64,000 nucleotides of DNA from a virus (IMGVR_UViG_3300044630_002233:7787-71786), one strand, 5' to 3'. Counted from the first letter of the stretch, positions 880 through 48,205 are shown. The notes: a model not told the origin generated them from the sequence alone. Translations and numbers: made by a program.

Positions 880-1150
880 ATTTTAGATTAGAAAATAGTA
901 TTTGGGTTGCTTCTTTACCAATCTCACAGATAAACAAATCTCTTGCAGTATGCATCATTGCAGTAGCCATCAACAAAATATCTGCACGTGTTTCACACTG
1001 CTCGATTTGTTGATTGATCGGTTTCATTAAATCTAAGAGTCGTGTCTCTCTTCGTGTTTCATCTGTTTCTACGGTGAATTCTTGTGGTACTTTTGGTACA
1101 TCTCTAAATTCAACGTCAACAATATTGTTGTCACTCATATTTTTCTCCAT
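842..1150 (-). CDS. hypothetical protein (102 aa)
   Basis: Minus-strand ORF packed between neighbouring genes with short overlaps. Confidence 0.4.
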   Translation of the reverse strand: MEKNMSDNNIVDVEFRDVPKVPQEFTVETDETRRETRLLDLMKPINQQIEQCETRADILLMATAMMHTARDLFICEIGKEATQILFSNLKFENPLNNESQDS

Positions 1151-2157
1151 GTCGTAAAATGTAATTTGGCTGCTGCTCCTGAGTAGGAGTTTTTATTTAT
1201 TAGATCAACGATAGAATTTTGATCCATCCCAGCCAAAATCATTTCATTAATATCTTTTTGTTTCATTGTATCTGGCAACATACAGACATTATACCCTTCG
1301 TCAATATATTTTTCAAGTTGCCTTACAATATCTTTGTTGCGTGGTTCATTGTCAATAACAATGGTGCAATTAGACTTAACCTTTTGGATTGTCAAAAGAT
1401 CGAAAGAAGCACCACTAACAGCAAGACAATTGGGAAGGAAAAGAGAATCAATTTGCCCTTCAACAACAAATATTTTCTCGGCATAGTTGACCCTGTCCAG
1501 ACCATAAATTTTCTCCTTGTCTTCATCAAGTTTAATTGTATAATACTTTGGTTCTTCCGCACCAAAAGCTCTAGCAGAATAAGCAAAGCATTTGCCTTCT
1601 GGTGTAAAGTATGGAAAGATTAAACGAGGATGGTCTTCATCTTCGTTTTTAAATTTTTCCAAGTTTTTATTTGACCACTTTTTAAATTTGGGCGCAAAAT
1701 ATATTAGATTCCATTTATCCTTGGGAATCTTTCTTGCTTCTACGTACTTAACCACTGGGTGGTCTTCTGGGAGTTTATCGATTCGTTGTGTTCCGTCAAG
1801 AACTGAATCAACACTTTCGATTACAGGCGCTTTTGTATCAGATACAAACCTGTCAATCTCTTTGTGATCATTATAACGAGTTGCTCCAGCTTTATATCTT
1901 TCCAGAACATACTCATCATACATAACATGGTCTACAAACTTTATAAAGTTTCCAATGTTAGTGCTATAACCACAATTGTGACACTTTACAAACAAGTCGG
2001 TCTTCATCTTATAGATGTACCCACGTGCTTTTAATTTGTTTTTCTTGGAGTCGCCACAGACAGGGCAACTAAAGTTCCAACTGTATTCATCTTTCTTCTT
2101 GAAGTTCCTAAGTCTTGGACCAAGAAGATTTGCATACTTTGCATCAATATATAACAT
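1135..2157 (-). CDS. 61: DNA primase (T4 gp61-like)
   Basis: N-terminal zinc ribbon CPVCGDS...CHNCG and C-terminal TOPRIM motif VVEGQIDSLFL. The likely true start is the ATG at 2157 (MLYIDAKY...), which is preceded by GGAG; the track ORF begins earlier at a TTG. Roughly 340 aa, matching T4 gp61. Confidence 0.8.
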   Translation of the reverse strand: MLYIDAKYANLLGPRLRNFKKKDEYSWNFSCPVCGDSKKNKLKARGYIYKMKTDLFVKCHNCGYSTNIGNFIKFVDHVMYDEYVLERYKAGATRYNDHKEIDRFVSDTKAPVIESVDSVLDGTQRIDKLPEDHPVVKYVEARKIPKDKWNLIYFAPKFKKWSNKNLEKFKNEDEDHPRLIFPYFTPEGKCFAYSARAFGAEEPKYYTIKLDEDKEKIYGLDRVNYAEKIFVVEGQIDSLFLPNCLAVSGASFDLLTIQKVKSNCTIVIDNEPRNKDIVRQLEKYIDEGYNVCMLPDTMKQKDINEMILAGMDQNSIVDLINKNSYSGAAAKLHFTTWRKI

Positions 2158-2182
2158 AATAACTCCACAAGCACATAATATA

Positions 2183-2211
2183 ATTATACTATAAAACAAC
2201 TTAAAAAGCAA
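2183..2211 (-). promoter_or_regulatory. Candidate sigma70-like promoter for the primase gene (-10 TATAAT, -35 TTGCTT, 17-nt spacer)
   Basis: Minus strand reads TTGCTT-N17-TATAAT about 25 nt upstream of the primase RBS. Confidence 0.3.
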
Positions 2212-2227
2212 GCATGATGCAATACTT

Positions 2228-2272
2228 GCTTCCAAACTTGACAACAGGCATAATTACGGTGTCAAGGATGAT
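2228..2272. repeat. 45-nt palindromic repeat element, copy 1 (CTTGACA-N16-TGTCAAG core)
   Basis: TGCTTCCAAACTTGACAACAGGCATAATTACGGTGTCAAGG is almost identical to the copy at 41999..42045. It is a 7-bp inverted repeat with a 16-nt spacer, sitting in the intergenic leader of the primase gene. Confidence 0.7.
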
Positions 2273-3715: not shown

Positions 3716-4101
3716 TATATGTTCCTTAATACTTTAATTACATTTTCATCCAACTCTATACCCGATAAGGTTAAATTAAAATTTGGTAATTCATCTGGCA
3801 TTCTATCCAGATAAACCAAAAATGTAACAAGAGTCGACCAATACTTCTCTTCTATCTTATAGAACAGCATTTGTGTTGCTGCTTCACCAAATATGTTATA
3901 CAAAACAATAATATGGTTAAGAATCAACCTCTCACGCAATTCGCCATTCTGTTGATACCGAGTAAAGAGTTTCTTAATATACAGAAATCTCTTTAGGTCT
4001 TCTTCGAACTCTGCAATACTATGACATTGTGGATTGTCATAGTGGTGCATTGCGTATAATAAAAAATTATTTTCTGTCAGTTTTTCCAGCAGCATCTTCA
4101 T
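3715..4101 (-). CDS. hypothetical protein (128 aa)
   Basis: ORF abutting neighbours on the same strand. Confidence 0.45.
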   Translation of the reverse strand: MKMLLEKLTENNFLLYAMHHYDNPQCHSIAEFEEDLKRFLYIKKLFTRYQQNGELRERLILNHIIVLYNIFGEAATQMLFYKIEEKYWSTLVTFLVYLDRMPDELPNFNLTLSGIELDENVIKVLRNI

Positions 4102-4258
4102 TCTCTAGCAATTTCTCACAGGCTTGGATCGCACCATTAAGCATGTTAATTTCTGCTTCCGTTTTAACAATAGTCTGTTTTAGTTGCTGTAAAAAATTTG
4201 CTTTTTCACTAACCGACTTTCTATATACTTCTAAATCACTAATCAACATATCTTTCAT
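4067..4258 (-). CDS. hypothetical small coiled-coil protein (63 aa)
   Basis: Short charged ORF in a tight operon arrangement. Confidence 0.3.
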   Translation of the reverse strand: MKDMLISDLEVYRKSVSEKANFLQQLKQTIVKTEAEINMLNGAIQACEKLLENEDAAGKTDRK

Positions 4259-4271
4259 TTTATACCCTCAA

Positions 4272-4868
4272 TTATAATGTAACAGTAAACCCTACATTCG
4301 AAATAACATGCCACTTAGAATTCAACCATTGCAACTGAAGGCTTGCTCCAGAAGATGATGTTGTAATTGATGTAGCACGAACATTTGATCCAGACAATGC
4401 AACTGCACCAGCAGCAGCCATTACTGCAACTGTTTTAATCTGCCCAGTAACACCGTTAGCGATTGTTAATGTAATCGCACCAGATGCATCAACTTCTGTT
4501 ACTGCAGTTGTTGCATTGATTGTTCCTGTACCCAACCCACTTAATGCTTGTGGAGTTTGTGACAAACGTAAGAAACCGTTGCTAACAGCAAGGTTACCAG
4601 TTACGTCTACTTTTTCTGTTGGAGTTTCTGTACCGAAGCCAACTCTATCGGTAGATGCGTCTACAAATACAAGTTGGTCATCGTTAAGACCTTTGATTCT
4701 TTGGTCTTGGTCACCACCGTCAGAGTTTAATACGGTAGGTGTTTTAATGTTAGCAAGGAAGTTAGCAACAGTAAGTTTCTTGTTACTACCACCCTGAACA
4801 ATATTCAATAAATCTGCACCAGCAGCTGAGGTCGCTACTGGTAATTCAGATATCTTTTGATCTGCCAT
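4272..4868 (-). CDS. virion structural protein, fiber/Ig-like (198 aa)
   Basis: Gly/Thr/Ala-rich beta-type composition. A late promoter motif and a 5' leader hairpin lie upstream. Confidence 0.45.
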   Translation of the reverse strand: MADQKISELPVATSAAGADLLNIVQGGSNKKLTVANFLANIKTPTVLNSDGGDQDQRIKGLNDDQLVFVDASTDRVGFGTETPTEKVDVTGNLAVSNGFLRLSQTPQALSGLGTGTINATTAVTEVDASGAITLTIANGVTGQIKTVAVMAAAGAVALSGSNVRATSITTSSSGASLQLQWLNSKWHVISNVGFTVTL

Positions 4869-4894
4869 TTGGCTCTCCTATTAAAATATAGAGT

Positions 4895-4918
4895 AGTGGA
4901 GTTTTTTACAACTCCACT
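4895..4918 (-). promoter_or_regulatory. Leader hairpin (AGTGGAGTT-loop-AACTCCACT) between the late promoter and the RBS
   Basis: Perfect 9-bp inverted repeat read directly from the sequence. Confidence 0.5.
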
Positions 4919-4934
4919 TCGTTCTAGGTATTTT

Positions 4935-4942
4935 TATTTATA
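4935..4942 (-). promoter_or_regulatory. T4-type late promoter motif TATAAATA
   Basis: Minus strand reads TATAAATA immediately after the upstream stop codon and about 65 nt before the ATG at 4868. Confidence 0.45.
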
Positions 4943-5509
4943 TTAACTAACGAAAGTCAATGTAGCTACGTCAGATACAACTTCTGCTGCGCCACCTGCT
5001 GATGTAACTTTAACACGATATTGATCGCCAGTATTGCCAACCAATTGTCCTGTCAATGCTAGTGAAGCAGATGTTGCGCCAGACACGTTTGTCCAACGAG
5101 TTGAGCCAACAGCTTTCTTCTGCCATTGATATGCTAGTGTACCACCACCAGAAGATACTGTTGCTGAAACGGAGAATGTTGCTCCACCAGATGAAGTATT
5201 TTGGTCAGCAGGTTGAGTACCGATAGTGATAGTGTATGTAGCGTCAGCTGCTTTAGTGTCATCAGCACGGTCGCCAGCGTTTGCTGCTGTTTCTGCCATT
5301 GCTACTAAGCATTCAGCTTTGTGACGTGTGTCACCAGCTGCGTCTACGAATGTGCTATACAACCACCAGCCTGCGCCAGTGATACCACGCTTCTTGTTTG
5401 TTTCTTGTTGTGCTTCAGTGATGTCTACAAAAATTGCCTTAGCAAGATCTGCAGTACCCAAGTACTTTGGACGATCAGCATCTGCGTCTGTTTTACCCCA
5501 TAGTGCCAT
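4943..5509 (-). CDS. Ig-like domain protein, probable capsid or tail decoration (188 aa)
   Basis: C-terminal TSSGGATFSVSATVSSGGGTLAYQWQKK...YRVKVTSAGG resembles a Big/Ig-like beta-sandwich. Confidence 0.45.
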   Translation of the reverse strand: MALWGKTDADADRPKYLGTADLAKAIFVDITEAQQETNKKRGITGAGWWLYSTFVDAAGDTRHKAECLVAMAETAANAGDRADDTKAADATYTITIGTQPADQNTSSGGATFSVSATVSSGGGTLAYQWQKKAVGSTRWTNVSGATSASLALTGQLVGNTGDQYRVKVTSAGGAAEVVSDVATLTFVS

Positions 5510-5524
5510 TTTAGTGCTCCTTGT

Positions 5525-7903
5525 TTATTTGTTTGAGTTTGGTAGGTGTAATGGATAACCAGTATAATCTACGCCAGTGCGTTTCTTACCAGTAGCTGCA
5601 CCTTTTTGTCTTGCCCCAGAAGTCGAACCTGCTGGACGTCCACGACCACGCTTCTCACCAGTTGGTGCTGGTTTCTTTTTTGGTTTATCTTCATCGTCAT
5701 CATCGTCGTCGCCTTGATATGATGAACCGTAAGATCCTTTATGAACATAACGACCGTTTTTATCAGTCTCATATTCGTCTAGTTGTTCGACTGACTCATC
5801 AATTTCATCAATCTCTTCTTCTATTACTGGAAGATTTTGAATGATATCTTCTTTAAATTGTTTATACTTTTTCAAGTCTCTCTCCTCTTTTTGTGCTTTG
5901 TCAGCTTGTAGTTTAGCAGCGATTGCCATCTGACGACGCTTCTCTGCGCTCTTACCTGCAAACTGAGGAGCATCTGATTGTTTGAAATCTTTGATTACAA
6001 CACCCATATCTGCCTTGGCCATATCCATCTTTTCGTCTAACTCAACTTCTTCATTAGTTGGTTTAGGTAAGTGTGGTGTTACTTTGAATTTATGTAGTTT
6101 GCCATCGCCAAGTTCTTTGTGCGCTTGGATATGAACAGACTTACCATCATTCTTAACTACTTTACCTTGCATCTTATCGCCAGTCTTACTTGCGTAGAAG
6201 TCAACGTGTTGTCCACTAACTTTATGGATATCCATCTTAGCGTGGTCAGGATGCATAACACCTTGTGACGCATACTCACGACCATTGATGCGCATTTCGT
6301 TCATTTCATATTCTTCTTTTGAGAAAGTAGAACGAGAAGTGTTGTAGTCGTGAACCGCACTGGTACGCTTTTTGTTTATTGCCTTACCGAAATCGTCAGC
6401 CTCAGCAGAAGTTTTGAATGGCTTCTTATGAACTACAACATTACCGTATGCGTTCATTGCTTTTGAATGATATGTTCCTGTAGTATTATGTTTTACTACA
6501 CCAGCATGATGCCATGTTTGGCTGGCTTCATCAATAGCAACATCTTCTTTGGTTAAACGATCAACTGCTTTATTAACACCAGCCTTACGTTTCCATGAAT
6601 TTGCTTTGTATTTGTTCGCAAGTGTTGTTGATGCTTCTTTCGAACTAGGTTTTCTAGCCTTGTCTGCCATGTTCTCAAAATCAGCACCGATTTTACGTTG
6701 AATAGTAGCATCATGCGCAGCTTTTTTGATGTAAGAACCCAAAGTTGATTTTGACAATTCATCAATCTGATCAACTTCTTCTTTCATCTTTCCAGTAGGC
6801 ATACCATTGATTGGTTTCTTAGTGGCTTTATATGCTTTATGTTCTGGTGTTCCCTTAATATATTTTCTATCAAGAGTTGGAGCAACTGGAGCAGTTTCTT
6901 TCATAGAAGCAGTTTTACGTTGCGCCTTGTCGCTCATGTTAGTGACTTTGCCACGTGGATCTTTGTTCTGCGCCTTCTTCCAATCACCCTCATAACTCCA
7001 GCTTTTTACTTTACCTGATTTATCTTTTACAACAGTAGAAGTTTCTTCGTTATGAAGACCGACGTAGTTGTGGTCATGAACCTTATAACCACTCTTCTTG
7101 TAATATGCAAGAGCAGTGTTGATAGCAGTATCTTTATCTGGAGCAGTTACTTTTGCTCTGCGCATCTTTTTCTCATTACGCTGAGAAACCATAGTGTGAT
7201 TTGGATTTGAAATAGTAACAGAAACAACGTGCTTACCTTCACACATTGATTTCTTTTTCGCTTCTTTCATTTCCTTCTCGTCTTCATCTTCTTCGCCTTC
7301 ATCTTCATCTTCACATTCACACTCTGCTTCTGGCATACCGCAGTCTTCGCATTTTTCATCTTCATCTTCAGTTTCGTCTTCGTCTTCGTCTTCTTCGCCT
7401 TCGTCTTTATCTTCTTTTACTGGAACACAATTTGGAACTTTCTTACCGTTCTTCATTTTCATTCCAACGGCAGTATAACCTTTCCAGCATGCATCCTTTA
7501 GACCTTCTTCTTCTAAGTCAACTTCTTCTGACATAGTAGAATGTTTTACTTGTGTCTTTGGACCATCGTTGGCTGAATGAAAATGAACGTCCTCGCCTTT
7601 GCGACGAGCAGTCCAGTGACGTCCAGTTTCATCTTTGAATTTATGTTCTTGTTCGTCTTTTAATTTTGCGATTGCTTGATGATGTTCTGGGTGCAAAGGA
7701 ATAGAGAAGTCTTTACCGTGATGTACAGTCTTCATTGTACCCCAAGAATATTTCTTAGTAGTAACTGTAGCTTCAGTAATGTCTTCTTTCATAGCATTTT
7801 TGCTCTTGCGTAGCAAGTGAAAGTCATGTGCATCAACTTTGCCGTTTTTGTTTTTATCAATCTTATGTTGATTGCCCTTTAAGGCTTCTTTAAAAGATAA
7901 CAT
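5525..7903 (-). CDS. giant charged protein with a poly-acidic block, Cys cluster, EF-hand-like loop and C-terminal AT-hooks (792 aa)
   Basis: DKNKNGKVDAHD EF-hand-like loop. Long D/E runs flank CEDCGMPEAECECEDE. The protein is Lys-rich throughout, has a DDDDDDED block, and ends in an AT-hook KRGRGRPAGS...GKKRTG. The N-terminus MLSFKEALKG is like the T4 internal-protein targeting motif. Confidence 0.5.
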   Translation of the reverse strand: MLSFKEALKGNQHKIDKNKNGKVDAHDFHLLRKSKNAMKEDITEATVTTKKYSWGTMKTVHHGKDFSIPLHPEHHQAIAKLKDEQEHKFKDETGRHWTARRKGEDVHFHSANDGPKTQVKHSTMSEEVDLEEEGLKDACWKGYTAVGMKMKNGKKVPNCVPVKEDKDEGEEDEDEDETEDEDEKCEDCGMPEAECECEDEDEGEEDEDEKEMKEAKKKSMCEGKHVVSVTISNPNHTMVSQRNEKKMRRAKVTAPDKDTAINTALAYYKKSGYKVHDHNYVGLHNEETSTVVKDKSGKVKSWSYEGDWKKAQNKDPRGKVTNMSDKAQRKTASMKETAPVAPTLDRKYIKGTPEHKAYKATKKPINGMPTGKMKEEVDQIDELSKSTLGSYIKKAAHDATIQRKIGADFENMADKARKPSSKEASTTLANKYKANSWKRKAGVNKAVDRLTKEDVAIDEASQTWHHAGVVKHNTTGTYHSKAMNAYGNVVVHKKPFKTSAEADDFGKAINKKRTSAVHDYNTSRSTFSKEEYEMNEMRINGREYASQGVMHPDHAKMDIHKVSGQHVDFYASKTGDKMQGKVVKNDGKSVHIQAHKELGDGKLHKFKVTPHLPKPTNEEVELDEKMDMAKADMGVVIKDFKQSDAPQFAGKSAEKRRQMAIAAKLQADKAQKEERDLKKYKQFKEDIIQNLPVIEEEIDEIDESVEQLDEYETDKNGRYVHKGSYGSSYQGDDDDDDEDKPKKKPAPTGEKRGRGRPAGSTSGARQKGAATGKKRTGVDYTGYPLHLPNSNK

Positions 7904-8350
7904 TTATTGTTCTCCGCTAGATTTTAATGTTGATGTCAACATCCAGTTATGTTTTTTATGAGCATCGATTCTACCTGCTAGATAATCCAGCAACCCTTGT
8001 TCATTTGCTGCTTCAGCTAATCTGAATGCTTGCATTAGTGAAGATAAAACTGATTGGTTTACTTGAACCAAATCAGCAATCATACCTTGAGCACCAGTAG
8101 CTGATGTATCCATCACCGTTCTATATTTATCAAACTCAATAAGTGTATGTGGAGCAACAGCACCCAATGCACGAATCTCTTCAGCTGTTACATCAATGCT
8201 ACCATAAACCTCTTCGTATATTTTTCCAAAGAAGTCATGTAACATTGGAAACAAAATTCCTTCTACATTCCAGTGGTAGCCTTGCGCCTTTAGATACATC
8301 ATAAAAGAATCTGCCAACACCACTTTCATTTGTTCTTGTAGTTCATTCAT
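7904..8350 (-). CDS. dps: Dps/ferritin-like DNA-protection protein
   Basis: YHWNVEG ... LHDFFGKIYEE matches the Dps ferroxidase-centre signature (HWNxxG ... H/D-E); the size, 148 aa, is typical. Confidence 0.65.
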   Translation of the reverse strand: MNELQEQMKVVLADSFMMYLKAQGYHWNVEGILFPMLHDFFGKIYEEVYGSIDVTAEEIRALGAVAPHTLIEFDKYRTVMDTSATGAQGMIADLVQVNQSVLSSLMQAFRLAEAANEQGLLDYLAGRIDAHKKHNWMLTSTLKSSGEQ

Positions 8351-8351
8351 T

Positions 8352-8633
8352 TTAACAGTCCCATGCTTTTCTAGACCAGTAATTTGCGCTAGTCTTATCG
8401 GTTAAATTTCCCTGACCAGAAGATCTTGCACAATAAGATTTCTTGCGGTTAGGATTATTCTTCTTAATACTTAAAGTTTTATCCCCGAAGTTTACTTTTT
8501 GCGCTTTACCGTCGCCATCTGGATCAACATATACCTTCGACTTCTTAACATCACCAGCCATTGGTTTGTTAAGTGGTACAGTCTTACCTTGATAGGTAGC
8601 TTCGTTTAGTAGGAACTCTTTAAATGTTATCAT
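8352..8633 (-). CDS. hypothetical protein (93 aa) with a CTS-like N-terminus
   Basis: MITFKEFLLNE start; contains VYVDPDGDGKAQKVNFGD. Confidence 0.4.
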   Translation of the reverse strand: MITFKEFLLNEATYQGKTVPLNKPMAGDVKKSKVYVDPDGDGKAQKVNFGDKTLSIKKNNPNRKKSYCARSSGQGNLTDKTSANYWSRKAWDC

Positions 8634-11404
8634 TTTGTGTACTTACTATGAGATAGTCTTGCTTTTTCGATCTGACGAACACGTGGAGCCAATTTCATCG
8701 CAATTCTATTTAACACTGGTTTCATCTTAGCGATGCGTTGCTCTAGACGTTCTTTCTCAGCAACTGATAGAGAAGCCAATGGTTTCTTAGCAATACGTTG
8801 CTTGATTGCTTTAATAGCAAGTCTACGTGCACGAGTGTTAATTACAGATTGTGGAGAAGATCTCTTTAAAGCAACTTTCGCTTTTGCCATACGTTTAGAT
8901 TTAGATCTAGCGAAACGTGTCTTTGCTTTAATGCGTTCTAGTCTTGAAAGAACTTCATTCAACGCTTCTTCTTTTAGGCTGTCTTCTAGTTCTTCACCTG
9001 TTTCATCATCAACAATAGCCAACTCTTCATCATCATATCCGTCAAGAATATCTTCCCAATCGTTGTGTTGGTTAACAATGTCATCAATCTCTTTATCGCT
9101 TAAACTAAATTCTTCAACTTCTTCTGAGAAACGATCATTACCTACAGATCTTTTTTCTCCTGGACCATCAGATCCAATCTTAATTAAACGAGAAGGATGT
9201 TTCTTTCCATCTTTACCCATTTTCTCATCAGCTGCTACAACATATCCCTCTTCAACTTCTTCTTTGCGATACTTAGAATATTCTTTTTCTAAATCTAGTT
9301 TACGTTGCTTAACGTGCTCTTGATCCACATCTTTGTTCATTGACAATTGATGTAGTGTTTTACTTTTCTCTTTGTAATCACCGTGTGGGTCTTTTGCGTT
9401 TAAAGCTGTTTCGCTTAAATCAAATTCTTCTTTTACGTTATGCTTGATATTGAAACTGTTGTCTCTGCGAACAGTTCCAAGATGCTTAGCACCTAATTTG
9501 TTTAGAGAGTTGCGACCACTAGCATTCATTGTGTGGTTTACATCATAGCTACCAGATTTATGTTTGTAGATTTCAATACCATCATCTGGATCTCTATGAG
9601 TTTTAACTTTATCGCTCGCATACTTCATTGCAGATTTTAAATCTTTGAAGTTTTCTTTTATGTTTTCTTTTTCTTGCTCATGCTTTTTAGATAGTGTTTC
9701 TTTTTCTCTAGCATGTTTTGCAGCAAGAGCAGCCTTAGCAACTTCACGAGCAAGTTTCTTAGGATCTCCGTTGGCTTCGCCTAAAGAATAGCGAACTTTT
9801 TGTTTTCTTAGGTTATCGTTTTCTGGTTGATTGTGTAAGGTTTCACCAACCTTAGTCATGTTTCTTTCTAACCAATCTGGGATACCATCATTGTCTGTAT
9901 CCACTTCAGTCATTCTACCTTCAGTATCATAGCTGAGTAACTTATTATAGTATGCTTCTTTTAATTTTTGTGGCATTAAGTTTGTATCAAACTCAATACC
10001 GATATCAGTTGCCATCTTCAACATACGTCTTAGGATTTCATATGACTCAGCATTCAATGCTTTGTTCTTAATCTTACGCAATCCCATGTTAACAATCTGC
10101 TCTGGGTTTGTTGTAGCTTCAACATTATCAACACCAAGTGTAGTAGCAATAATTCTAGCTGCTTTAATTTGATCAGCAGAACTTGGTTTTAATGTTTTGT
10201 TTGTTAGGTTTTCAATTACAGTACCAGTTACTTTAACAGAATCATTCATCTCTTCTTTACCTGCTTCTTTATAGTCAGACGCAAGTTTTTCGATATGGTC
10301 GCCATGCGTTTTTAAATAGTTGTCATGGTGTTCTGCTTGACCCATCTTAGCAAGATGCTCTCTTGCTCTATCCATATGAACTTTGACATTGTTGACTACT
10401 TCGGGGGATGCTTGTCTTGTTGCAATCGCAGCCTTAAGATGTCCAAGGTATTCGTCAACTTCTTTCATTGCGTGTAGAATATCTACAGCACTTGCGTCGC
10501 CTGAGTGGATACTAGTGTTGAACGCATCAACAACTGAAGTATCTAAGTCGAAGTGTTTAGTTGTGTAGCCTTGCCAGCTAACTTGATTGTGATCTTCTGG
10601 ATTTTCAAAATCTTCTTGAAGATACACGTCTTTAATCCAACGAGTAAATTTCACGTCTGTTCCTTCTTCTGTTAATAGTAGATGATTTGAACCACGTTTA
10701 ACGACAACGCATTGTTTATTCTCACAAACAACAACGTCACCAACATTAAAGATCTCACCACGGAAATATTTTTCACGTAGGTCATCAACTGTTATATTTA
10801 ATGATTCTTTAACTGGCGCAAGGTCATACGCTTTGCGAATCTCATTCATCAATCTGCGTGCATCCAAGTCGGTAAGAGTTTTAGGAACACCCTTTTTAAA
10901 CTCAGAGAACTTTCCAGCCTTTGCTGCTTCACGCATCTTTGTACCTGACATACCTGTAGCGTTATCTGAATCTGGATCCCTTTCACCAGCAGAAACTACA
11001 GTAACGGTATCAAAGTTGAATTCAGTTCCGTTATACTTTTCTAAAATCTTTTTGTATTCTGCGATACGGTCGCTACCTGCAACCATAACAATATTCTTGT
11101 AACGCTTGTTTAATTCTTTGGCAGCTTCGATAAATGTTCTTACTTGTTCGTTGGCTGCTTTAAAATTAGCTCCAGGAAACATACGCTGGAGGTAATATAC
11201 TTTACGGGAAACTGGGAGTGGGTTTTGCTTCTTGTCTTCAGTCTTAGAAGCATAAATGACATGGTCTGCTCCCTGAGCAGACGCAACTTTTTGAACAGCT
11301 TTTACTAAGAGTTCGTGTCCTGTGGTTGGTGGCTGGAAGCGACCAAACGCAAATACAACCTTCTTGGAAGGCAACTCTTTAATTAGTTGTCTATATTTCT
11401 TCAT
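8630..11404 (-). CDS. NadM-type nucleotidyltransferase (NMNAT superfamily) fused to an ~750-aa charged C-terminal region
   Basis: N-terminal FGRFQPPTTGHELL (archaeal NMNAT GRFQPFHKGH motif) and MSGTKMRE (equivalent to ISST/SGTEIR). The C-terminal ~750 aa are Lys/Glu-rich and low-complexity. The N-terminus MKKYRQLIKELP is like the T4 internal-protein targeting motif. Confidence 0.6.
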   Translation of the reverse strand: MKKYRQLIKELPSKKVVFAFGRFQPPTTGHELLVKAVQKVASAQGADHVIYASKTEDKKQNPLPVSRKVYYLQRMFPGANFKAANEQVRTFIEAAKELNKRYKNIVMVAGSDRIAEYKKILEKYNGTEFNFDTVTVVSAGERDPDSDNATGMSGTKMREAAKAGKFSEFKKGVPKTLTDLDARRLMNEIRKAYDLAPVKESLNITVDDLREKYFRGEIFNVGDVVVCENKQCVVVKRGSNHLLLTEEGTDVKFTRWIKDVYLQEDFENPEDHNQVSWQGYTTKHFDLDTSVVDAFNTSIHSGDASAVDILHAMKEVDEYLGHLKAAIATRQASPEVVNNVKVHMDRAREHLAKMGQAEHHDNYLKTHGDHIEKLASDYKEAGKEEMNDSVKVTGTVIENLTNKTLKPSSADQIKAARIIATTLGVDNVEATTNPEQIVNMGLRKIKNKALNAESYEILRRMLKMATDIGIEFDTNLMPQKLKEAYYNKLLSYDTEGRMTEVDTDNDGIPDWLERNMTKVGETLHNQPENDNLRKQKVRYSLGEANGDPKKLAREVAKAALAAKHAREKETLSKKHEQEKENIKENFKDLKSAMKYASDKVKTHRDPDDGIEIYKHKSGSYDVNHTMNASGRNSLNKLGAKHLGTVRRDNSFNIKHNVKEEFDLSETALNAKDPHGDYKEKSKTLHQLSMNKDVDQEHVKQRKLDLEKEYSKYRKEEVEEGYVVAADEKMGKDGKKHPSRLIKIGSDGPGEKRSVGNDRFSEEVEEFSLSDKEIDDIVNQHNDWEDILDGYDDEELAIVDDETGEELEDSLKEEALNEVLSRLERIKAKTRFARSKSKRMAKAKVALKRSSPQSVINTRARRLAIKAIKQRIAKKPLASLSVAEKERLEQRIAKMKPVLNRIAMKLAPRVRQIEKARLSHSKYTK

Positions 11405-11456
11405 TTTTACCCATCTATAAAATATTACTTTATCTATTATTTAGTCAATCTAGACT

Positions 11457-12695
11457 TTAATATATCTCTCGCCATTGCATTCCAACACCAACAGTAGTAC
11501 TTTGAGTACCTAGATTTGTAGCTACTAGAACATAAATCTCTGAGTCTGTAGAATCATAGTTCTGAACAATATAGTTTTTCTTGGCTGATGAAGGTAGATC
11601 TGGTCCTGGAGCACCACCAGCTTTAAGAGCACCTTGCGTAGAAGCACCGACCCATCCTGCATCGATACAATCACCCTCAGTATATGCCGTAGCATCCACA
11701 CAATACTCAACTCCACTATCATCATCGACTGGAGTCCATGTTGTTTCGGTTAAATTAGATGTGTTAGGTAACTTAATCAATTTCCAACCGATATTCTCAC
11801 CACTACTAAAAACAGACAAATTACCCATACGAACAATCATTCTATTTTTATAGGTTCTAAAGGCATTCTTTAAACGAATCGCCATGATTGGTAGAGTCTG
11901 CCCAGAAGTAAGAGTTCTTGGAATGTTTGCTTGCGCCCAATCGGTTCCAGCTTCAACATACCCACCCTCTGACATAACAGTAGAACAGATTTGATCAAAG
12001 TAACCACCAGCAGTTGTTCCCACATTAACAAGTTCGCAACGGATAGGTAGGTTTGGATTACTCATATAAACTGTTGGCAAATTATTGCTGTTGTTAAATG
12101 CATGAGCGATTACGTATTGCCCATCATGAACAAAACCACAACGAACTCTACCAACACCAAGCCATTGAAAGTCAATCCAAAATAATTGCGTTTTGGTTAT
12201 ATCTAAATTGAAAGCACTAGATCCAGTACCATCACACTTATCTCCATTCCATTGAGACTGAGGTATTCTTCTTTCTGTTGGCGCACCAGTAACATAAGTT
12301 CTAACAACAATGTTTAGTGTACCATCACCTGTTTGTTCAAAATAGATACCATCATTATCATCAAAATACCCTGTTCGTTTAGTTACGTTTGGGACTGCAG
12401 TATAAAAGTTAAAACTAGAAAGGATAACCTGACTTTTTCCAGGCATGTAATGATGATAGAATTTGCTTTGATGAACAAGTCTTGAGTTTGGATTGTTTGA
12501 AGTTGTTAATCTTGCGCATGCTTGATTGGGTTGAAACGATAGTGTTGCACCATTAACAGCATAATCAATAAAGTTTGGATCTAAACCAAAGATGTGTTTA
12601 TAATCACCAAGCGTATATGGTTCACTGGTGCGTCCTCTTCCAAACGCATCAACATTTTGACTCTCCTGAAATAAATACGTCATACTATTCTCCAA
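11457..12695 (-). CDS. hypothetical protein (412 aa), possibly virion-associated beta-rich protein
   Basis: Long ORF with no recognisable catalytic motif. Confidence 0.4.
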   Translation of the reverse strand: MENSMTYLFQESQNVDAFGRGRTSEPYTLGDYKHIFGLDPNFIDYAVNGATLSFQPNQACARLTTSNNPNSRLVHQSKFYHHYMPGKSQVILSSFNFYTAVPNVTKRTGYFDDNDGIYFEQTGDGTLNIVVRTYVTGAPTERRIPQSQWNGDKCDGTGSSAFNLDITKTQLFWIDFQWLGVGRVRCGFVHDGQYVIAHAFNNSNNLPTVYMSNPNLPIRCELVNVGTTAGGYFDQICSTVMSEGGYVEAGTDWAQANIPRTLTSGQTLPIMAIRLKNAFRTYKNRMIVRMGNLSVFSSGENIGWKLIKLPNTSNLTETTWTPVDDDSGVEYCVDATAYTEGDCIDAGWVGASTQGALKAGGAPGPDLPSSAKKNYIVQNYDSTDSEIYVLVATNLGTQSTTVGVGMQWREIY

Positions 12696-13363
12696 CCATC
12701 TCTATAAATCATCTGTATACCACCGTTGTCTATTTTTAAGATAAATCCGTTTGGATCATTATCAACATTTCCGTGAACAATTATTGGAAATTTTGAACAT
12801 CTTCCAGATTCATCTTTGATTATAAGGTATCTACCATTCTTAACAATAGAAGGTAAAGTTAATGTTACTGTGCCAGCATAATTTACGCCAATATAATAAT
12901 CTTTTCTACCAACTGTATATGAAGGTGTTGTTACTAGCGTTGTTGGGTGATCTAGGTTTACTACGTCACCAGCGCCACCACCTGGACCAGCGTTTTGTAT
13001 TTTAGCGATCCACTGCTCAAGAAATTTTATTTTAGCATCAACAGTTTTAAATTGTTTTGTTAATGGATCTACTGGAGCTGCAATACCAGCTGGTGTGCTT
13101 AGATACTTATCAATATTTGGTATCTGTAGTTCTGGTGGTGTAACACCGACTGGAGTTGGTATTGGTGTTTCTTCTAGTAGAGTTGGATTTTCTTCTACAA
13201 GTTTTTCTTTATGTTTTTGTAGAGAAGCCAACTCCTCAAACAATACACTCAAATCAGATTGAATGTTTTCTTTTACTTCCTTGATAATCTTATGCTCTGG
13301 ACTTTTCTCTTTAGCCTCACGCATAAGACTGACTAAATCATTTAGACTGCTCATCGCTGCCAA
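12680..13363 (-). CDS. hypothetical protein (227 aa), N-terminal coiled coil plus C-terminal beta domain
   Basis: ORF overlaps its neighbours by a few nt on the same strand. Confidence 0.4.
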   Translation of the reverse strand: MAAMSSLNDLVSLMREAKEKSPEHKIIKEVKENIQSDLSVLFEELASLQKHKEKLVEENPTLLEETPIPTPVGVTPPELQIPNIDKYLSTPAGIAAPVDPLTKQFKTVDAKIKFLEQWIAKIQNAGPGGGAGDVVNLDHPTTLVTTPSYTVGRKDYYIGVNYAGTVTLTLPSIVKNGRYLIIKDESGRCSKFPIIVHGNVDNDPNGFILKIDNGGIQMIYRDGWRIV

Positions 13364-14580
13364 CCTTTGATAATTTCTGGCGAGAAGTTTGCCTTACTAA
13401 ACTCTAAGCGATCAACGATCTTTACTGCGCCACCACGCAAGTGGTCAATAGCAACAAACCCTTCTACGCCAGTCGTCTTGAATCCATTAGCAGTCTTTAA
13501 GAAAGTCTTCATAGATCCAGCTTTATTCATCTTGGCGATAATCAATTTCTTGGCTTCAGTCAAAACATTAGCCAACTCAAATACGCTCTCGATAGACTTC
13601 CTGTCATTGTTTGCAAAGAAAGCCATTACAGCTTTGCGCTTTTCGTTGACACCAGCCTTACCTTTTTCTGTCTTCAACTTATCCATGTCTTTCTGATATT
13701 TCCCATGGATATAATCAAACAACTCATCAACGTGTTTCTTTGGATTAGAGATAGTTTCTCCAGCACGCACCTTGGAGTTATTGAAAGTCTTGACCAATGT
13801 AAGCAACTCGGTATTGTTAGAAATGCTGTTTAGAGTATTAGCATTAATAGACTTGAACAACACACCTGCTTTTGATAGTAGGGAAGTTACTTCAGTAGTT
13901 TCTGATTCCGTAAAGGTAGCAGTTCCAGAAACATCTTTGTAGTTGGCGTCATCCATCCAGATTGAACCAACCTTGTTAAATTTGTCAACAATACCTTTAC
14001 CGAAAGTAGCCTTCATTGTTTCAAACGAACTACCTTCATATGTAGTATGCCAAACAACACCAATCTTAGCAGCACGTAGTTTAGTGGCAAGAGGACTATC
14101 ATATGGAACAGCGTATACAATAGTGTTAGGATGGAAGGTTACATACTTCTTACCATCAATCGTTTCTGTTTTCAAATCGTTAGTGAACATCAAGTCGCCT
14201 TGATAAACACCAGACTTGATGCCCAACTTCTTAAACTCTGCCAATGCAACTTTCAGTTTAGCTGCCAAGTCGCCTTCAGTATCCGCATCGATTTCTTTTG
14301 GTGTCTTATAAACCTTTGGCTCTTTATTGAAGACACCTTTCTTTGCTACAAAGAATTTGCCATCACGTGGATCAATACCAGCAAATACAGCTGGCGCACC
14401 GTCCCACTTAACAGTAGTAGTAATTTTTGACTTGCTATTACCAGCCAACATATCACGCAAGTCTTGTAGGAAGTTAATTGCTTTACGTGTACCCAGAACA
14501 CCTTCGTTGAAGATTAAATCCTCAACGTGTTCCATATGGGTATTCTTTTCTTCTCTAATATACTCTTTTAAGTTTAACAT
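13351..14580 (-). CDS. rnlA: RNA ligase 1 (T4 RnlA-like) nucleotidyltransferase
   Basis: Motif I TVKWDGAP (KxDG), and motifs IV/V EGFVAIDHLRGGAVKIVD aligning with T4 RnlA EGYVAVMKDGSHFKIK. CTS-like start MLNLKEYIREE. Confidence 0.55.
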   Translation of the reverse strand: MLNLKEYIREEKNTHMEHVEDLIFNEGVLGTRKAINFLQDLRDMLAGNSKSKITTTVKWDGAPAVFAGIDPRDGKFFVAKKGVFNKEPKVYKTPKEIDADTEGDLAAKLKVALAEFKKLGIKSGVYQGDLMFTNDLKTETIDGKKYVTFHPNTIVYAVPYDSPLATKLRAAKIGVVWHTTYEGSSFETMKATFGKGIVDKFNKVGSIWMDDANYKDVSGTATFTESETTEVTSLLSKAGVLFKSINANTLNSISNNTELLTLVKTFNNSKVRAGETISNPKKHVDELFDYIHGKYQKDMDKLKTEKGKAGVNEKRKAVMAFFANNDRKSIESVFELANVLTEAKKLIIAKMNKAGSMKTFLKTANGFKTTGVEGFVAIDHLRGGAVKIVDRLEFSKANFSPEIIKGWQR

Positions 14581-15194
14581 TATTTCACCAACTTTATTTG
14601 TCCATCAGGTAAAGCGAAGTAGGCATTAAACCTAATCATCGGAAACTCTCTACCTAATTTTAGGAATTCTTTTAGGTTGCTCATGCTGTCATCAAACAGA
14701 GCAACTCTTGAAAATTGTTTAGTCTTTAAATACTCACGAATAATAATCGCCTTCTTAACAGCAGGGATATTATTGTCTTCCATATTACCAGCACGTTCAA
14801 CACGAACCTTGTCAATATCGAAACCATGCTTACGGAAGGTTGCTAGAAATTTGTCACGATTATCAAAGTTCGCTCTAGCAGTAACAATGATAACTTTGTT
14901 CAAAGGGTTTCTGTCTGTAGCGGAAACCAACTTGCTTGCTGTATTTAGCATCTTAGCGATTGGCTTCGATTCTTTATAAAACTTGGCAGCATCTTTGAAT
15001 TCAGAAAAATCGAAGGACTCACCAGCCCCAAGTTTGTAATTATTAAACTCTTGGTTGGTCAGCTTCTTTAGGACTGCGCCATCTTTTTTAACAGCGATCT
15101 GGGCAGTGGTATGGAAGAGGGTGTCGTCAATATCGAATATGGATAGACGACCCAGCGTTTCTTCTTCTTTTAGTAGATATTCTTTAAACCTCAT
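14580..15194 (-). CDS. HAD-family phosphatase (polynucleotide 3'-phosphatase-like)
   Basis: HAD motif I FDIDDTLFH, motif II IIVTAR, and motif IV ALFDDS. No P-loop kinase domain is present. Confidence 0.55.
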   Translation of the reverse strand: MRFKEYLLKEEETLGRLSIFDIDDTLFHTTAQIAVKKDGAVLKKLTNQEFNNYKLGAGESFDFSEFKDAAKFYKESKPIAKMLNTASKLVSATDRNPLNKVIIVTARANFDNRDKFLATFRKHGFDIDKVRVERAGNMEDNNIPAVKKAIIIREYLKTKQFSRVALFDDSMSNLKEFLKLGREFPMIRFNAYFALPDGQIKLVK

Positions 15195-15200
15195 ACCTTT

Positions 15201-15229
15201 ATTATACCTGAATTCTGAATTATTGTAAA
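15201..15229 (-). promoter_or_regulatory. Early sigma70-like promoter (TTTACA-N17-TATAAT)
   Basis: Minus strand reads TTTACAATAATTCAGAATTCAGGTATAAT. The -10 ends 6 nt before the ATG at 15194, so the mRNA may be leaderless. Confidence 0.6.
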
Positions 15230-15235
15230 GTATTC

Positions 15236-15252
15236 CCCTACGGTTTGTAGGG
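15236..15252 (-). terminator. Stem-loop CCCTAC-N5-GTAGGG immediately upstream of the early promoter (PeSL-like cassette)
   Basis: Inverted repeat read from the sequence. The same hairpin-plus-promoter arrangement recurs at 35.5 kb and 38.05 kb. Confidence 0.5.
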
Positions 15253-28025: not shown

Positions 28026-28033
28026 TATTTATA
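28026..28033 (-). promoter_or_regulatory. T4-type late promoter motif TATAAATA upstream of the long hsp20 leader
   Basis: Minus strand reads TATAAATA, about 190 nt upstream of the hsp20 ATG. Confidence 0.35.
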
Positions 28034-45068: not shown

Positions 45069-45076
45069 TATTTATA
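45069..45076 (-). promoter_or_regulatory. T4-type late promoter TATAAATA
   Basis: Minus strand reads TATAAATA 28 nt upstream of the gp3-like ATG. Confidence 0.5.
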
Positions 45077-46496: not shown

Positions 46497-47504
46497 TTAT
46501 TTCTTGATACTGTTAAATGCAGTTAGATAAGCACTGATAGATGGGTCAACGACCTTCTCTTCTTTTAGCTCTTCTACTGCGCTGTCTGTTACAACAGACT
46601 TAACTTCTGAAGTTGCCTTCTTAGTAAAGTAGTTTTCACGTATTGTCTGAAGTTTTGTCTTAAATGATTCAGCATCATCATAAGCCAATTCTTCTGCTAA
46701 AGACTTAAACTTCTCTACTTCTGTGTCAGCCATGTCTTTAACATAAGCATCAATTGTTGCCTGACGAGCAGACTCATTGATTGACTTTGTCAACTCAACA
46801 TTCTTAGCGACAGTTTCGTCAAGTTTGGATTCAAGAGACTGAAGTTTTTCTTCCATGTCTGCCAATACATCGAAACGCTCTTCAGGAATTTCAATGTAAG
46901 ACTCTTGGAAAGCAACTTTAATCTTCTCGATAAAGTCTTCCATAATTTCAGACTTAATACCAGATTCAAGGGCAAGTTCATTATCTGCAATCCACTGCTC
47001 AACCATATAGTTGAGATATCCATCAACCTTTTCAACAAGACCCTCTTTGAAGCTCTCAACTTGCTCAGCAAGTTTTGCATCAAACTCTTCTTCGAGTTTA
47101 GCGACTTCTTGCTTAACTCGAGTAACTACTGCTGCTTCAAAAATTGTTGCAGCTTTAGTTTTAAATTCTTCTGAAAGACCTTCACCGTTAACAAGAGCAG
47201 CTACATCTTCGCTGACATCAACTGTGATTTCTCTTTCTTTCTTCTCGTCAACGATTTCTTCTTCAACGATCTCTTCTTCTACTAGAGTTTCATCTTCGAT
47301 TGTTTCGTCTTCTTCTTTTACTGCTTTAAGATTTGATGATTCTGGAGCTGAAGCATTGCTCTTAACATCACCTTTCTTAGTTGTTGGTGCTGTTGGCTCG
47401 CGAACATCATTTCTCTTATTGTCTGGATTTTGTTCTTCGCCCAACGATGCCTGCAGCTTTTGTGATTCAGCTAGCATCTCGGCAATTTTCTTTTCAATTG
47501 ACAT
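46497..47504 (-). CDS. 22: prohead scaffold protein (gp22)
   Basis: Highly acidic coiled-coil protein (EEEIVEEEIVDE) between the protease and capsid genes. Confidence 0.75.
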   Translation of the reverse strand: MSIEKKIAEMLAESQKLQASLGEEQNPDNKRNDVREPTAPTTKKGDVKSNASAPESSNLKAVKEEDETIEDETLVEEEIVEEEIVDEKKEREITVDVSEDVAALVNGEGLSEEFKTKAATIFEAAVVTRVKQEVAKLEEEFDAKLAEQVESFKEGLVEKVDGYLNYMVEQWIADNELALESGIKSEIMEDFIEKIKVAFQESYIEIPEERFDVLADMEEKLQSLESKLDETVAKNVELTKSINESARQATIDAYVKDMADTEVEKFKSLAEELAYDDAESFKTKLQTIRENYFTKKATSEVKSVVTDSAVEELKEEKVVDPSISAYLTAFNSIKK

Positions 47505-47541: not shown

Positions 47542-47549
47542 TATTTATA
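47542..47549 (-). promoter_or_regulatory. T4-type late promoter TATAAATA upstream of the scaffold gene
   Basis: Minus strand reads TATAAATA in the 47-nt gap between the protease and scaffold genes. Confidence 0.45.
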
Positions 47550-47551: not shown

Positions 47552-48205
47552 TTATTTGATTTTACTCAAAAAATTCTGGAAAGCACGGATCTTGGCTTCC
47601 GTTAAATTCTTCGATGATGTCTTACGTATTACACGCTTAACTTCATCTATATGTTTCTCCACAAATTTCCCATCAACGAAAACCCACTCCTTACCTTCCA
47701 TAATGCCACGAACGAAAGCATCTGGTGCTGAAGGGTCGGCAACGATATCTGCTGCGGTTGACAACATGAAATCGTCTTGAACAATTTGTACACCGTCTTT
47801 GTTTTCTTTAAGTGAACCCATTGCTCTTGAAGAAACACCTAGATTTGCGCCACCGTCTAAAAGACCTCTAGCGATCATACCGTTTGGTGTTTCTAAAATC
47901 TTTGCTCTACCAACGTAGTTACTACCTTCCTTGCGCAATGATGTAATCATATGCGAAACAAGATGAAGGTTAATGCCTGGACCGTCTGGATGTCCCAGTT
48001 CGCCAAAGGCACGATTATTCTGCACTGTTTCTTCCATGTAACGAGCAACTTCTTTATCCATAATTTCAGATGGATACATGCGACCGTTACGGTTTTTAAT
48101 ATCAGCTTGCAAGAAGATACCTTCAATAAAGTAGTCTTTTTTCTTTCCTACTTTTTCTTCTACAACAAACTTAATGTCTTGTACTTCTTCTCTAATGAGT
48201 TTCAT
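47552..48205 (-). CDS. 21: prohead protease (gp21)
   Basis: GELGHPDGPG motif, size 217 aa, and position match T4 gp21. Confidence 0.8.
   Translation of the reverse strand: MKLIREEVQDIKFVVEEKVGKKKDYFIEGIFLQADIKNRNGRMYPSEIMDKEVARYMEETVQNNRAFGELGHPDGPGINLHLVSHMITSLRKEGSNYVGRAKILETPNGMIARGLLDGGANLGVSSRAMGSLKENKDGVQIVQDDFMLSTAADIVADPSAPDAFVRGIMEGKEWVFVDGKFVEKHIDEVKRVIRKTSSKNLTEAKIRAFQNFLSKIK

Follow-up and report, generated by a model that had tools for sequence, protein, structure and literature searches.

A module-shuffled mosaic protein of a marine T4-like phage as a candidate internal head protein processed by the prohead protease

The window analyzed here is a stretch of 64,000 nucleotides (nt) of viral DNA (IMGVR_UViG_3300044630_002233:7787-71786), in which an open reading frame (ORF) on the minus strand, 5525..7903, encodes a protein of 792 amino acids (aa). 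As judged from conservation and structure prediction, this protein is no uniform polyampholyte but a mosaic, in which small folded modules, each conserved independently of the others, are strung together by acidic, disordered linkers. The reading we tentatively favor, at a little under an even chance, is that the mosaic protein is packaged in the capsid and processed there by the prohead protease, making it a “poly-internal-protein” (“poly-IP”) whose basic fragments would bind DNA. An internal head protein is favored because the window holds T4-like head genes including a gp21-type protease, because the linkers carry the motif of that protease, because an AT-hook is conserved at the C-terminus, and because mass spectrometry (MS) has found proteins of the equivalent region in virions of the cyanophage S-CREM2. 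A DNA-condensing internal head protein had been one of three options in a preliminary description of this ORF; that option gains ground here, while the weight that description laid on the acidic and cysteine-rich block does not carry over.

The ORF starts with ATG, has GGAG 8 nt in front of it, and directly adjoins the TAA stop of a Dps gene. The composition is as extreme as the preliminary description had it, with 15.0% Lys, 3.4% Arg, 8.6% Asp, 9.5% Glu (18.1% for the two acidic residues) and 4.5% His, and with 146 Lys and Arg residues against 143 Asp and Glu; between aa 166 and 210 the acidic residues reach 19 per 30-aa window. The motifs it had singled out are all present: CEDCGMPEAECECEDE at aa 185-200, DDDDDDED at aa 732-739, KRGRGRP at aa 751-757, and at aa 16-28 DKNKNGKVDAHDF, which is an exact fit to the PROSITE EF-hand pattern PS00018 and the sole such match in the protein. 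No Pfam family matches the mosaic protein at E<=0.1, among them EF-hand, T4_CASP (PF25623) and DUF6321 (PF19846), and a PDB sequence search gave no match, in line with the earlier remark that no enzymatic motif can be seen. Homology to a tail or capsid decoration protein, which had been named as contrary evidence, was looked for in the mosaic protein and not found; assignment as a tail fibre, decoration protein or tape measure was rejected, there being no such PHROG or Pfam matches to the protein and disordered acidic linkers being present.

Structure was predicted with AlphaFold2 on an alignment (A2) of the query and 40 collinear full-length relatives. The predicted local distance difference test score (pLDDT) is at least 70 for 299 of the 792 residues and below 50 for 315. 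The disorder expected of a polyampholyte is thus only part of the picture, since the confident residues fall into discrete modules: a beta-plus-helix region at aa 58-125 (about 90), a hairpin at aa 143-161, aa 225-305, a helical hairpin at aa 385-463 (about 90), a beta domain at aa 541-610 (about 90) and a helix at aa 653-689. Between and after them run predicted disordered stretches at aa 35-48, 127-132, 166-228, 314-382, 462-468, 524-538, 616-635 and 691-792. There are at least six conserved, confidently folded modules, listed in Table 1 as S3, CW, M1, S5, M4 and S7. The most conserved, S3, has a beta-beta-beta-alpha-beta4-alpha topology and nearly invariant His residues (HHG and HPEHH), and it may be Whirly/PUR-like and perhaps nucleic-acid-binding, the Whirly/MRP/Pur-alpha fold for single-stranded nucleic acids having two beta-beta-beta-beta-alpha repeats. 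The N module is predicted less firmly, its loop lying between helices at aa 12-15 (4 residues) and aa 25-39 with pLDDT of only about 70-74. When the entire 792-aa model was used for fold searches, Foldseek against the PDB gave no match with E under 0.5, and BFVD yielded uncharacterised relatives only. A kinship of S3 and M4, suspected from the HP[ED]H common to both, was rejected at an hhalign probability of 1%.

The linkers are where the case for processing lies. The gp21 prohead protease of T4 cuts after the Glu of L/I-x-E (PMC9026906), and the gp22-type scaffold and capsid propeptide of the window phage bear the same motif, the scaffold densely so. The mosaic protein has nine L/I-x-E sites (after aa 44, 132, 382, 459, 624, 696, 700, 703 and 710), every one of them within a linker or at its margin. 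For eight the pLDDT is below 50, whereas composition-preserving shuffles predict 2.64 such sites (P=0.002); the ninth sits at the end of a helix, next to a disordered stretch. The site after aa 696 closes module S7, ahead of the three in the following acidic linker. The position of the motif is kept through the family. Against a background of 0.0123 per position in 119 relatives, it stands at most 4 aa before the start of S5 in 62/62 cases, of S7 in 36/38, of S3 in 86/110 and of the C-terminal module in 29/38, and a logo over 594 unique sites reads K-E-E-[EV]-E-[EQ]-[LI]-[DE]-E, followed by A, L, E or K. At the M4 junction relatives have KEEVELDE/A, where the query has a degenerate EYEMNE/M. 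Cutting at the linkers is predicted to yield fragments of 5.1, 10.2, 28.3, 8.5, 18.6, 8.3 and 8.9 kDa, of which five have an isoelectric point (pI) of 9.1-9.8 and the other two are acidic (5.3 and 6.9). Two linker pairs also form short DNA repeats, D3 and D4 (6032-6052/7508-7528, 90% over 21 nt), and these could act as joints for module exchange.

The enzyme and its setting are both present in the window, which by its gene content is that of a T4-like marine myophage. Its head genes include the gp23 major capsid protein, the gp22-type scaffold and the gp21-type prohead protease, and other T4-like genes encode the portal, sheath, TerL, gp43 polymerase, UvsX, gp41 and gp46/47. The closest cultured phages are cyanomyophages, with only 63% capsid protein identity, and a megablast of window positions 4000-12000 against 50,697 phage genomes gave no match, so that there is no close cultured relative. 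The genes around the mosaic ORF all lie on the same strand, tightly packed, and include PHROG “virion structural protein” and “head protein” genes.

The mosaic protein belongs to a family that is very large and previously undescribed. A public metagenome collection holds one identical protein (P0001) and more than 1755 relatives, and an exhaustive HMMER scan found 4639 clusters (50% identity) at E<=1e-3, 252 of them at E<=1e-30. PHROGs labels the family “unknown function”, there is no Pfam family for it, and relatives in UniProt/BFVD are automatically named “EF-hand domain-containing protein”; in the literature on DUF6267/DUF6321, the cytidylyltransferase, cyanophage capsid targeting and AT-hooks in phage virions the family is not described. 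Modules recur across relatives in differing order and number, with two fixed in position, the N module nearly always being N-terminal and the AT-hook module always C-terminal. Homologues cover the query well at aa 1-125, 340-460, 530-680 and 700-780 but poorly in the acidic/Cys block. Of 120 relatives, 111 retain the EF-hand pattern and 112 retain KRGRGRP, the latter every time 20-49 residues from the C-terminus, which bears out the canonical AT-hook of the preliminary description; G753 and G763 of the AT-hook module are invariant. The CW motif occurs in 24/120 and CxxCxMPxxxCxC in 22/120, and the acidic/Cys block is a variable accessory and no core feature of the family. Against phage genomes, tblastn of the C-terminal AT-hook module gave no match, and tblastn of the N region gave matches via the EF-hand-like loop only. 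A further recurrent module, EYxYEGDMA.NQL....L..DTNLPEWVQSKIT.A.DYI, is found in many family members (L014, L042, L086, P0208) and is not in the query.

The leaders of the family and of its neighbor genes provide a second link to the T4 head. In T4 a 10-aa N-terminal capsid targeting sequence (CTS) is enough for packaging (PMC9026906; PMC10229621); residues 4 and 7 matter in targeting, residues 8 and 10 in processing (PMC9026906). The CTS is about 10 aa long, hydrophobic or aromatic at positions 4 and 7, with L/I at 8 and Glu at 10 (PMC9026906). A leader pattern taken from the T4 CTS before scanning fits five of the 78 ORFs in the window, where 0.18 would be expected, and four of these belong to the cassette immediately preceding the mosaic gene. 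The four proteins are mutually non-homologous and have the L/I-x-E end at residue 10-11. In orthologues the pattern is found in 42/47 cytidylyltransferases, 20/37 DUF6267 proteins and 8/11 HAD proteins, and in the non-leader neighbors it is found in 0/40 Dps, 0/30 head188, 0/52 DUF7207 and 0/37 primase proteins. The DUF6321-like, cytidylyltransferase-like, DUF6267 and HAD-like proteins are on this basis candidate capsid-packaged enzymes.

Leader-like sequences also occur in the mosaic family itself. The N-terminus of the internal proteins (IPs) IPII and IPIII of T4 is MKTYQEFIAE-A, and some relatives of the mosaic protein start with MKSYKEILE/A, MKSYTQFLE/A, MLSFKNYLTE/K or MLSFLEYIQE/S, immediately before differing first modules. 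Internal 10-mers at least 6/10 identical to MKTYQEFIAE number 15, against 0.5 expected (e.g. MKTYKEFVTE and MKTFKEFIEE); all 15 keep the Met and are placed just before the AT-hook module, which suggests that formerly separate leader-bearing genes have been fused. The likeness ends with the leader: when IPII and IPIII, the two T4 IPs compared, were run by blastp against a set of 254 family members, no significant homology was seen, with CTS alignments short and at E>=1.2 and a best non-CTS match at E 0.35.

The only wet-laboratory evidence bearing on packaging comes from the T4-like cyanophage S-CREM2, and we regard it as indirect. MS of CsCl-purified S-CREM2 virions detected ORF154, ORF155, ORF156 and ORF160 from the equivalent region (PMC10665884 Table 3). 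The ORF154 cytidylyltransferase was represented by 3 peptides (11.2% coverage) and the hypothetical ORF160 by 7 peptides (13.1% coverage), ORF155 and ORF156 being annotated as hypothetical (PMC10665884). S-CREM2 gp154 aligns to the cytidylyltransferase-like domain of the window at 33% identity (E 3e-35), and its N-terminus, MKNFSSFLTE/A, is a perfect CTS-type leader. gp160 is a K-rich protein of 297 aa that adjoins DUF7207 and primase. The part it shares with the query is the CW module and its upstream linker, at 46% over 37 aa, and the CW mini-module is common to the query, BUCT-ZZ01, P-TIM68 and the virion-detected gp160. gp160 also has two modules in common with a 1006-aa mosaic protein of P-TIM68 (E 3e-22 and 1e-12), which in turn has S5, CW and S7 modules in common with the query. 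The virion-detected gp156 (L088 6013-6726) starts MKKLISE/L, a 7-residue leader ending in I-x-E that recalls the short propeptide reported for T4 Alt.

Taken together in the favored reading, the precursor would be drawn into the prohead scaffolding core via its N-terminal leader and N module or via internal leader-like sequences. The prohead protease would then cut the linkers to give about seven pieces of 5-28 kDa, most with pI 9-9.8. The basic pieces would remain with the packaged AT-rich DNA (38% GC), as IPI-III do in T4, and would probably be delivered into the host with it. The main candidates for DNA binding are the C-terminal AT-hook fragment, which may enter the minor groove, and perhaps the putatively Whirly/PUR-like S3. 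Separate release would leave modules free to join the protein, drop out of it or change places at the conserved linkers, and we propose that the extreme mosaicism of the family arises because each module is released separately.

Several observations weigh against this reading. Packaging and cleavage of the mosaic protein are themselves inferred from sequence, and the S-CREM2 detections are few-peptide ones, the authors saying only that the proteins “may be encapsulated” (PMC10665884). The query N-terminus, MLSFKEALKG, fails the CTS pattern: F4 and L8 are present, positions 7 and 10 are Ala and Gly, and there is no [LI]xE in the first 12 aa. Within the family the T4-derived pattern fits only 2/120 and 4/38 N-termini, and the leader consensus, M[EDQ][YF]K[ST]FME/ALKG, has Phe instead of L/I at P3. 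Folded modules show no detectable depletion of [LI]xE (1 observed, 1.66 expected), and its enrichment in linkers may partly reflect acidic helix-capping linkers. An N module also occurs in Pelagibacter podophage HTVC023P, which is without a T4-type protease, and is hence not specific to T4-like heads; there gp53 (121 aa; L006 3998-4363) opens with the EF-hand-like module MLKGNQKKLDKNKDGKISGEDFKLMKK and continues in a hydrophobic segment rich in Gly and Ala, which implies that the module is mobile between unrelated marine phage groups.

Transcription signals count on the same side. The cassette is headed by a sigma-70-type promoter (TTTACA-17-TATAAT, 11/12, window 15201-15229, minus strand), which ends 6 nt before the HAD-like ATG and lies just after a hairpin at 15236-15252; three relatives (L007, L016, L036) have a perfect 12/12 TTGACA-17-TATAAT. 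This arrangement suggests an early, possibly leaderless transcript. The T4 late motif TATAAATA is absent near the mosaic gene in a scan of the window, and among relatives it stands 5' of the cytidylyltransferase gene in only 9/47 loci; the related P-TIM68 gene is located among replication genes. Elsewhere in the window five exact TATAAATA matches on the minus strand (4935-4942, 28026-28033, 45069-45076, 47542-47549 and 63647-63654) are all on the coding strand, intergenic and just 5' of genes, including a tail-fibre-like gene and the scaffold gene. These are plausible T4-type late promoters, although their count alone is not above chance, and the 7-mer ATAAATA shows no enrichment in the window.

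The alternative that survives best, to which we give a real but distinctly smaller share of belief, is that the mosaic protein stays uncleaved in the cytoplasm as a multi-domain DNA-binding or nucleoid-organizing protein which, with Dps, coats, compacts or protects phage DNA or disrupts the host nucleoid. Its acidic linkers would then provide flexible spacing and joints for recombination instead of being cut by a protease, and the repetition of linkers at the DNA level (D3, D4) agrees with such a use. The conserved AT-hook and the putatively Whirly/PUR-like S3 suit this alternative, as do the translational coupling to Dps, with Dps adjacency in 40/80 loci, the presumably early promoter, the podophage N module and an N-terminus that misses the strict CTS pattern. 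It leaves unexplained, however, why L/I-x-E, and not mere acidity, should be kept at 62/62 and 36/38 module boundaries, why near-copies of the T4 CTS occur inside the proteins, and why a mosaic relative and a leader-bearing cytidylyltransferase are found in purified virions. Free reordering of modules also fits poorly with one folded assembly.

All the evidence on protease sites and targeting applies equally to an accessory component of the prohead scaffolding core, comparable to T4 gp22, gp67 or gp68, which would assist in building or sizing the head and then be digested at L/I-x-E with most fragments expelled before DNA packaging and without delivery to the host. Core proteins of T4 are cut into several fragments that exit the head (PMC9026906), the gp22 homologue of the window phage has the same dense [LI]xE pattern, and the two acidic fragments of the mosaic protein (pI 5.3 and 6.9) resemble acidic core peptides. 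We nonetheless consider this unlikely. The window already has a gp22-type scaffold and also two small minus-strand ORFs (48209-48616 and 48620-49165; no Pfam match) that are flanked by the portal and protease genes, where T4 has genes 67/68 for prohead core proteins, and the query has no T4_CASP match. A conserved AT-hook and basic folded modules would have no obvious use if destroyed before DNA entry, and T4-like core proteins are conserved and collinear, not shuffled mosaics.

Less probable again is that binding or sensing of metals or calcium is the primary role, with Ca2+ held by the EF-hand-like loop, Zn2+ by the CxxC...CxC cysteines and metals by the His-rich S3, and with a possible link to iron handling by the adjoining Dps. 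The PS00018 pattern of 111/120 relatives, their automatic naming as EF-hand proteins, the 4.5% His with its nearly invariant S3 residues and a four-Cys motif conserved in a subgroup can all be read in this way. The loop itself has the pattern that the preliminary description recognized but departs from a typical EF-hand, being single and unpaired, with Asp27 instead of Glu at position 12 and without a Pfam EF-hand match; the Cys cluster, in only 22/120 relatives, is predicted to be disordered. Metal binding may belong to single modules, and it would leave the mosaic architecture, the AT-hook and the linkers unexplained. The acidic block and Cys cluster, once taken as pointers to metal binding or DNA mimicry, are variable accessories of about 20% of relatives. 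A DNA mimic in the manner of Ocr or Arn, whose D/E block (19 acidic residues per 30 aa between aa 166 and 210, and a second run at aa 732-739) would imitate the DNA backbone and trap host restriction enzymes or nucleoid proteins, is very improbable, as that block is the least conserved part of the protein, absent from most relatives and predicted disordered, whereas known DNA mimics are rigid folded arrays, and fold searches gave no structural match to Ocr- or Arn-type proteins.

The features of the mosaic protein and of the genes discussed with it are collected in Table 1.

Table 1. Features of the mosaic protein, of its upstream cassette and of the head genes in the window (positions counted from the first nucleotide of the window).
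Feature	Position	Strand	Details
Whole mosaic ORF	5525..7903	-	stop codon 5525-5527; identical protein P0001 in public collection
N-terminal leader MLSFKE, aa 1-6	7886..7903	-	short form of M[EDQK][YF]K[ST]F[ML]E / MKSYKEILE; partial T4 CTS likeness
N module, aa 7-44: helix, EF-hand-like loop DKNKNGKVDAHDF (nt 7820-7858), helix	7772..7885	-	linker end KEDITE, site after aa 44
Module S3, aa 45-132 (YSWGTMKTVHHG...IPLHPEHH...)	7508..7771	-	most conserved folded domain; linker end MSEEVDLEE, site after aa 132
CW beta-hairpin mini-module CWKGYTAVGMKMKNGKKVPNCVP, two Cys, aa 139-161	7421..7489	-	phrog_9737; pLDDT ~80; 24/120 relatives
Variable acidic block and Cys cluster CEDCGMPEAECEC, aa 162-221	7241..7420	-	predicted disordered; low homologue coverage; DNA-level GAN repeats D1/D2
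Module M1, aa 222-305: HVVSVTISNPNHTMVSQRNEKK...AYYKKSGYKVHDHNYVG, alpha/beta	6989..7240	-	pLDDT ~70; homologous module in BUCT-ZZ01 UTS51990
Conserved proline-rich segment APVAPTLDRKYIKGTPEHKAYKATKKPINGMPTGK and linker MKEEVDQIDE, aa 338-382	6758..6892	-	site after aa 382
Module S5, aa 383-459: LSKSTLGSYIKKA..., helical hairpin	6527..6757	-	phrog_5709; pLDDT ~90; linker end KEDVAIDE, site after aa 459; also in P-TIM68
Lineage-specific segment M3, aa 460-537	6293..6526	-	only 3/120 relatives; degenerate linker end KEEYEMNE
Module M4, aa 538-624: INGREYASQGVMHPDHA...KFKV, small beta domain	6032..6292	-	pLDDT ~90; linker end TNEEVELDE, site after aa 624
Module S7, aa 625-696: KMDMAKADMG..DAPQFAGKSAEKRRQMAIAAKL, helical	5816..6031	-	internal leader-like KKYKQF, aa 678-683
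Acidic linker EIDEIDESVEQLDE	5774..5815	-	three [LI]xE sites after aa 700, 703, 710; pLDDT<50
C-terminal module, aa 711-792: YETDKNGRYVHKGSYG.., tail ..GVDYTGYPLHLPNSNK	5528..5773	-	predicted disordered, pLDDT<45; always C-terminal in relatives
D-run, aa 732-739	5687-5710	-	within C-terminal module
AT-hook KRGRGRP, aa 751-757	5633-5653	-	K751-P757, R-G-R-P core in unstructured basic stretch, pLDDT<45
Upstream cassette part	7904..15194	-	HAD-like 204 aa, DUF6267 409 aa, 227 aa, 412-aa virion structural protein, cytidylyltransferase-like 924 aa, DUF6321-like 93 aa, Dps
DUF6321-like 93 aa, leader MITFKEFLLNE	8352-8633	-	T4-CTS-like leader ending L/I-x-E
Cytidylyltransferase-like 924 aa, leader MKKYRQLIKE	8630-11404	-	T4-CTS-like leader ending L/I-x-E
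DUF6267, leader MLNLKEYIRE	13351-14580	-	T4-CTS-like leader ending L/I-x-E
HAD-like, DxDxT motif, leader MRFKEYLLKE	14580-15194	-	T4-CTS-like leader ending L/I-x-E
gp22-type scaffolding protein	46497..47504	-	PF25623 T4_CASP, E 1e-65; many [LI]xE sites; proposed docking partner in prohead core
gp21-type prohead core serine protease	47552..48205	-	PF03420 Peptidase_S77, E 6.7e-38; proposed linker-cutting enzyme

The order of this neighborhood is conserved in 80 IMG/VR loci as (HAD), DUF6267, (227 aa, 412-aa structural protein), cytidylyltransferase, (DUF6321), Dps, mosaic, (head protein), DUF7207 and later primase, and cassette synteny is kept in about 55 loci. The Dps neighbor noticed in the preliminary description, at 7904-8350, is a Dps/ferritin protein (PF00210, E 2.5e-19). 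The primase-like ORF of 369 aa (1135-2244, minus strand) has a TTG start that is probably too far upstream, its orthologues in 37 loci beginning at the internal MLYIDAKYA.... Module S7 (aa 622-669) has a tblastn match to cyanophage proteins labelled DUF6321-containing, located outside that domain.

The cassette enzymes have features of their own. In the DUF6267 protein, VKWDGAP forms a KxDG motif similar to motif I of ligase and capping nucleotidyltransferases. Together with the neighboring HAD-like protein (DxDxT) and a polynucleotide-kinase-like P-loop gene seen in one relative (L002), the DUF6267 protein recalls a set for RNA/DNA end repair. Modularity extends to the 924-aa protein, in which the leader is followed by a nucleotidyltransferase domain at aa ~15-270 (HxGH-like TTGH), then by a long charged region in which EEV..E linkers and a calcium-loop-like DTDNDGIPDW occur, and lastly by a conserved, very basic, helical C-terminus that is also found in BUCT-ZZ01 UTS51989. 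DUF6267 and nucleotidyltransferase parts are fused in some phages (phrog_455). PDB sequence searches with DUF6267 and with the cytidylyltransferase-like domain found nothing significant.

Among known systems, the closest comparison is the CTS/gp21 internal protein system of T4. The window phage is T4-like with a gp21-type protease and a gp22-type scaffold, the leaders in the family and in neighbor genes resemble MKTYQEFIAE, L/I-x-E lies in accessible regions, and the predicted fragments are small and mostly basic, as are the T4 IPs (basic, 8-20 kDa). The T4 IPs differ in being encoded by separate small genes with one N-terminal site each, where the query has about seven fused units and internal sites; the mature parts are non-homologous (IPII, IPIII), the query's own leader is degenerate, and we know of no AT-hook or EF-hand-like loop in T4 IPs. 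Since the proposed mode of action is that of the T4 system, while homology to IPII and IPIII is lacking and the strict CTS test failed, the mosaic protein would represent a variant of that system and not a member of it.

Giant phages provide a second comparison. In phiKZ, 201phi2-1 and SPN3US, large inner-body or ejection proteins with redundant propeptide sites are cut after Glu at several sites by a diverged gp21 homologue (PMC9026906). What is proposed for the query is similar, a large internal head protein with multiple cuts after Glu, but the giant-phage proteins have no sequence or fold similarity to it, come from genomes of >200 kb and are not module-shuffled. Their protease motif is S/A/G-x-E, compared with L/I-x-E here.

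Nearer relatives are S-CREM2 gp160 and gp154, P-TIM68 AIR93496 (1006 aa) and BUCT-ZZ01 UTS51990 (612 aa), which have CW hairpin, M1, S5 and S7 equivalents, acidic [LI]xE linkers and the same neighborhood with cytidylyltransferase, DUF7207 and primase; none has the query's N module, S3 or AT-hook module, and they are annotated only as hypothetical. The C-terminus has a parallel in HMGA, with a K-R-G-R-G-R-P core in a disordered basic stretch and an adjoining acidic run like the HMGA acidic tail, but it has one putative hook rather than three, a phage setting and no other similarity. The DxDxDG loop of EF-hands is matched exactly by pattern and lies between predicted helices, and the query loop departs from it in the points noted above.

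To our knowledge, almost nothing is known of what the heads of tailed phages contain besides DNA outside T4 and a few giant phages. If the reading favored here is correct, the CTS/gp21 packaging logic of T4 would extend to abundant marine T4-like phages, where it would handle several enzymes and also a fused precursor with shuffling modules. A bolder proposal, which we think possible yet rather doubtful, is that the heads of these phages carry a combinatorial arsenal, made up of a protease-processed polyprotein of small shuffled modules, DNA-binding and other (the mosaic family, >4600 clusters) and CTS-like-tagged enzymes (the cytidylyltransferase-like nucleotidyltransferase, DUF6267 with its KxDG motif and the HAD phosphatase), injected with the DNA as pre-made counter-defense or take-over factors, with linkers that double as protease sites and recombination joints and so would drive a rapid exchange of modules. 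The favored reading would also define a very large uncharacterised protein family, with its 4639 clusters at 50% identity, and the combination of leader and L/I-x-E linkers would become a sequence rule for predicting injected proteins from metagenomes, as well as a source of natural tags for cargo loading into non-model phage capsids. The conserved AT-hook would then be a rare case of a DNA-binding motif typical of eukaryotes in a phage virion.

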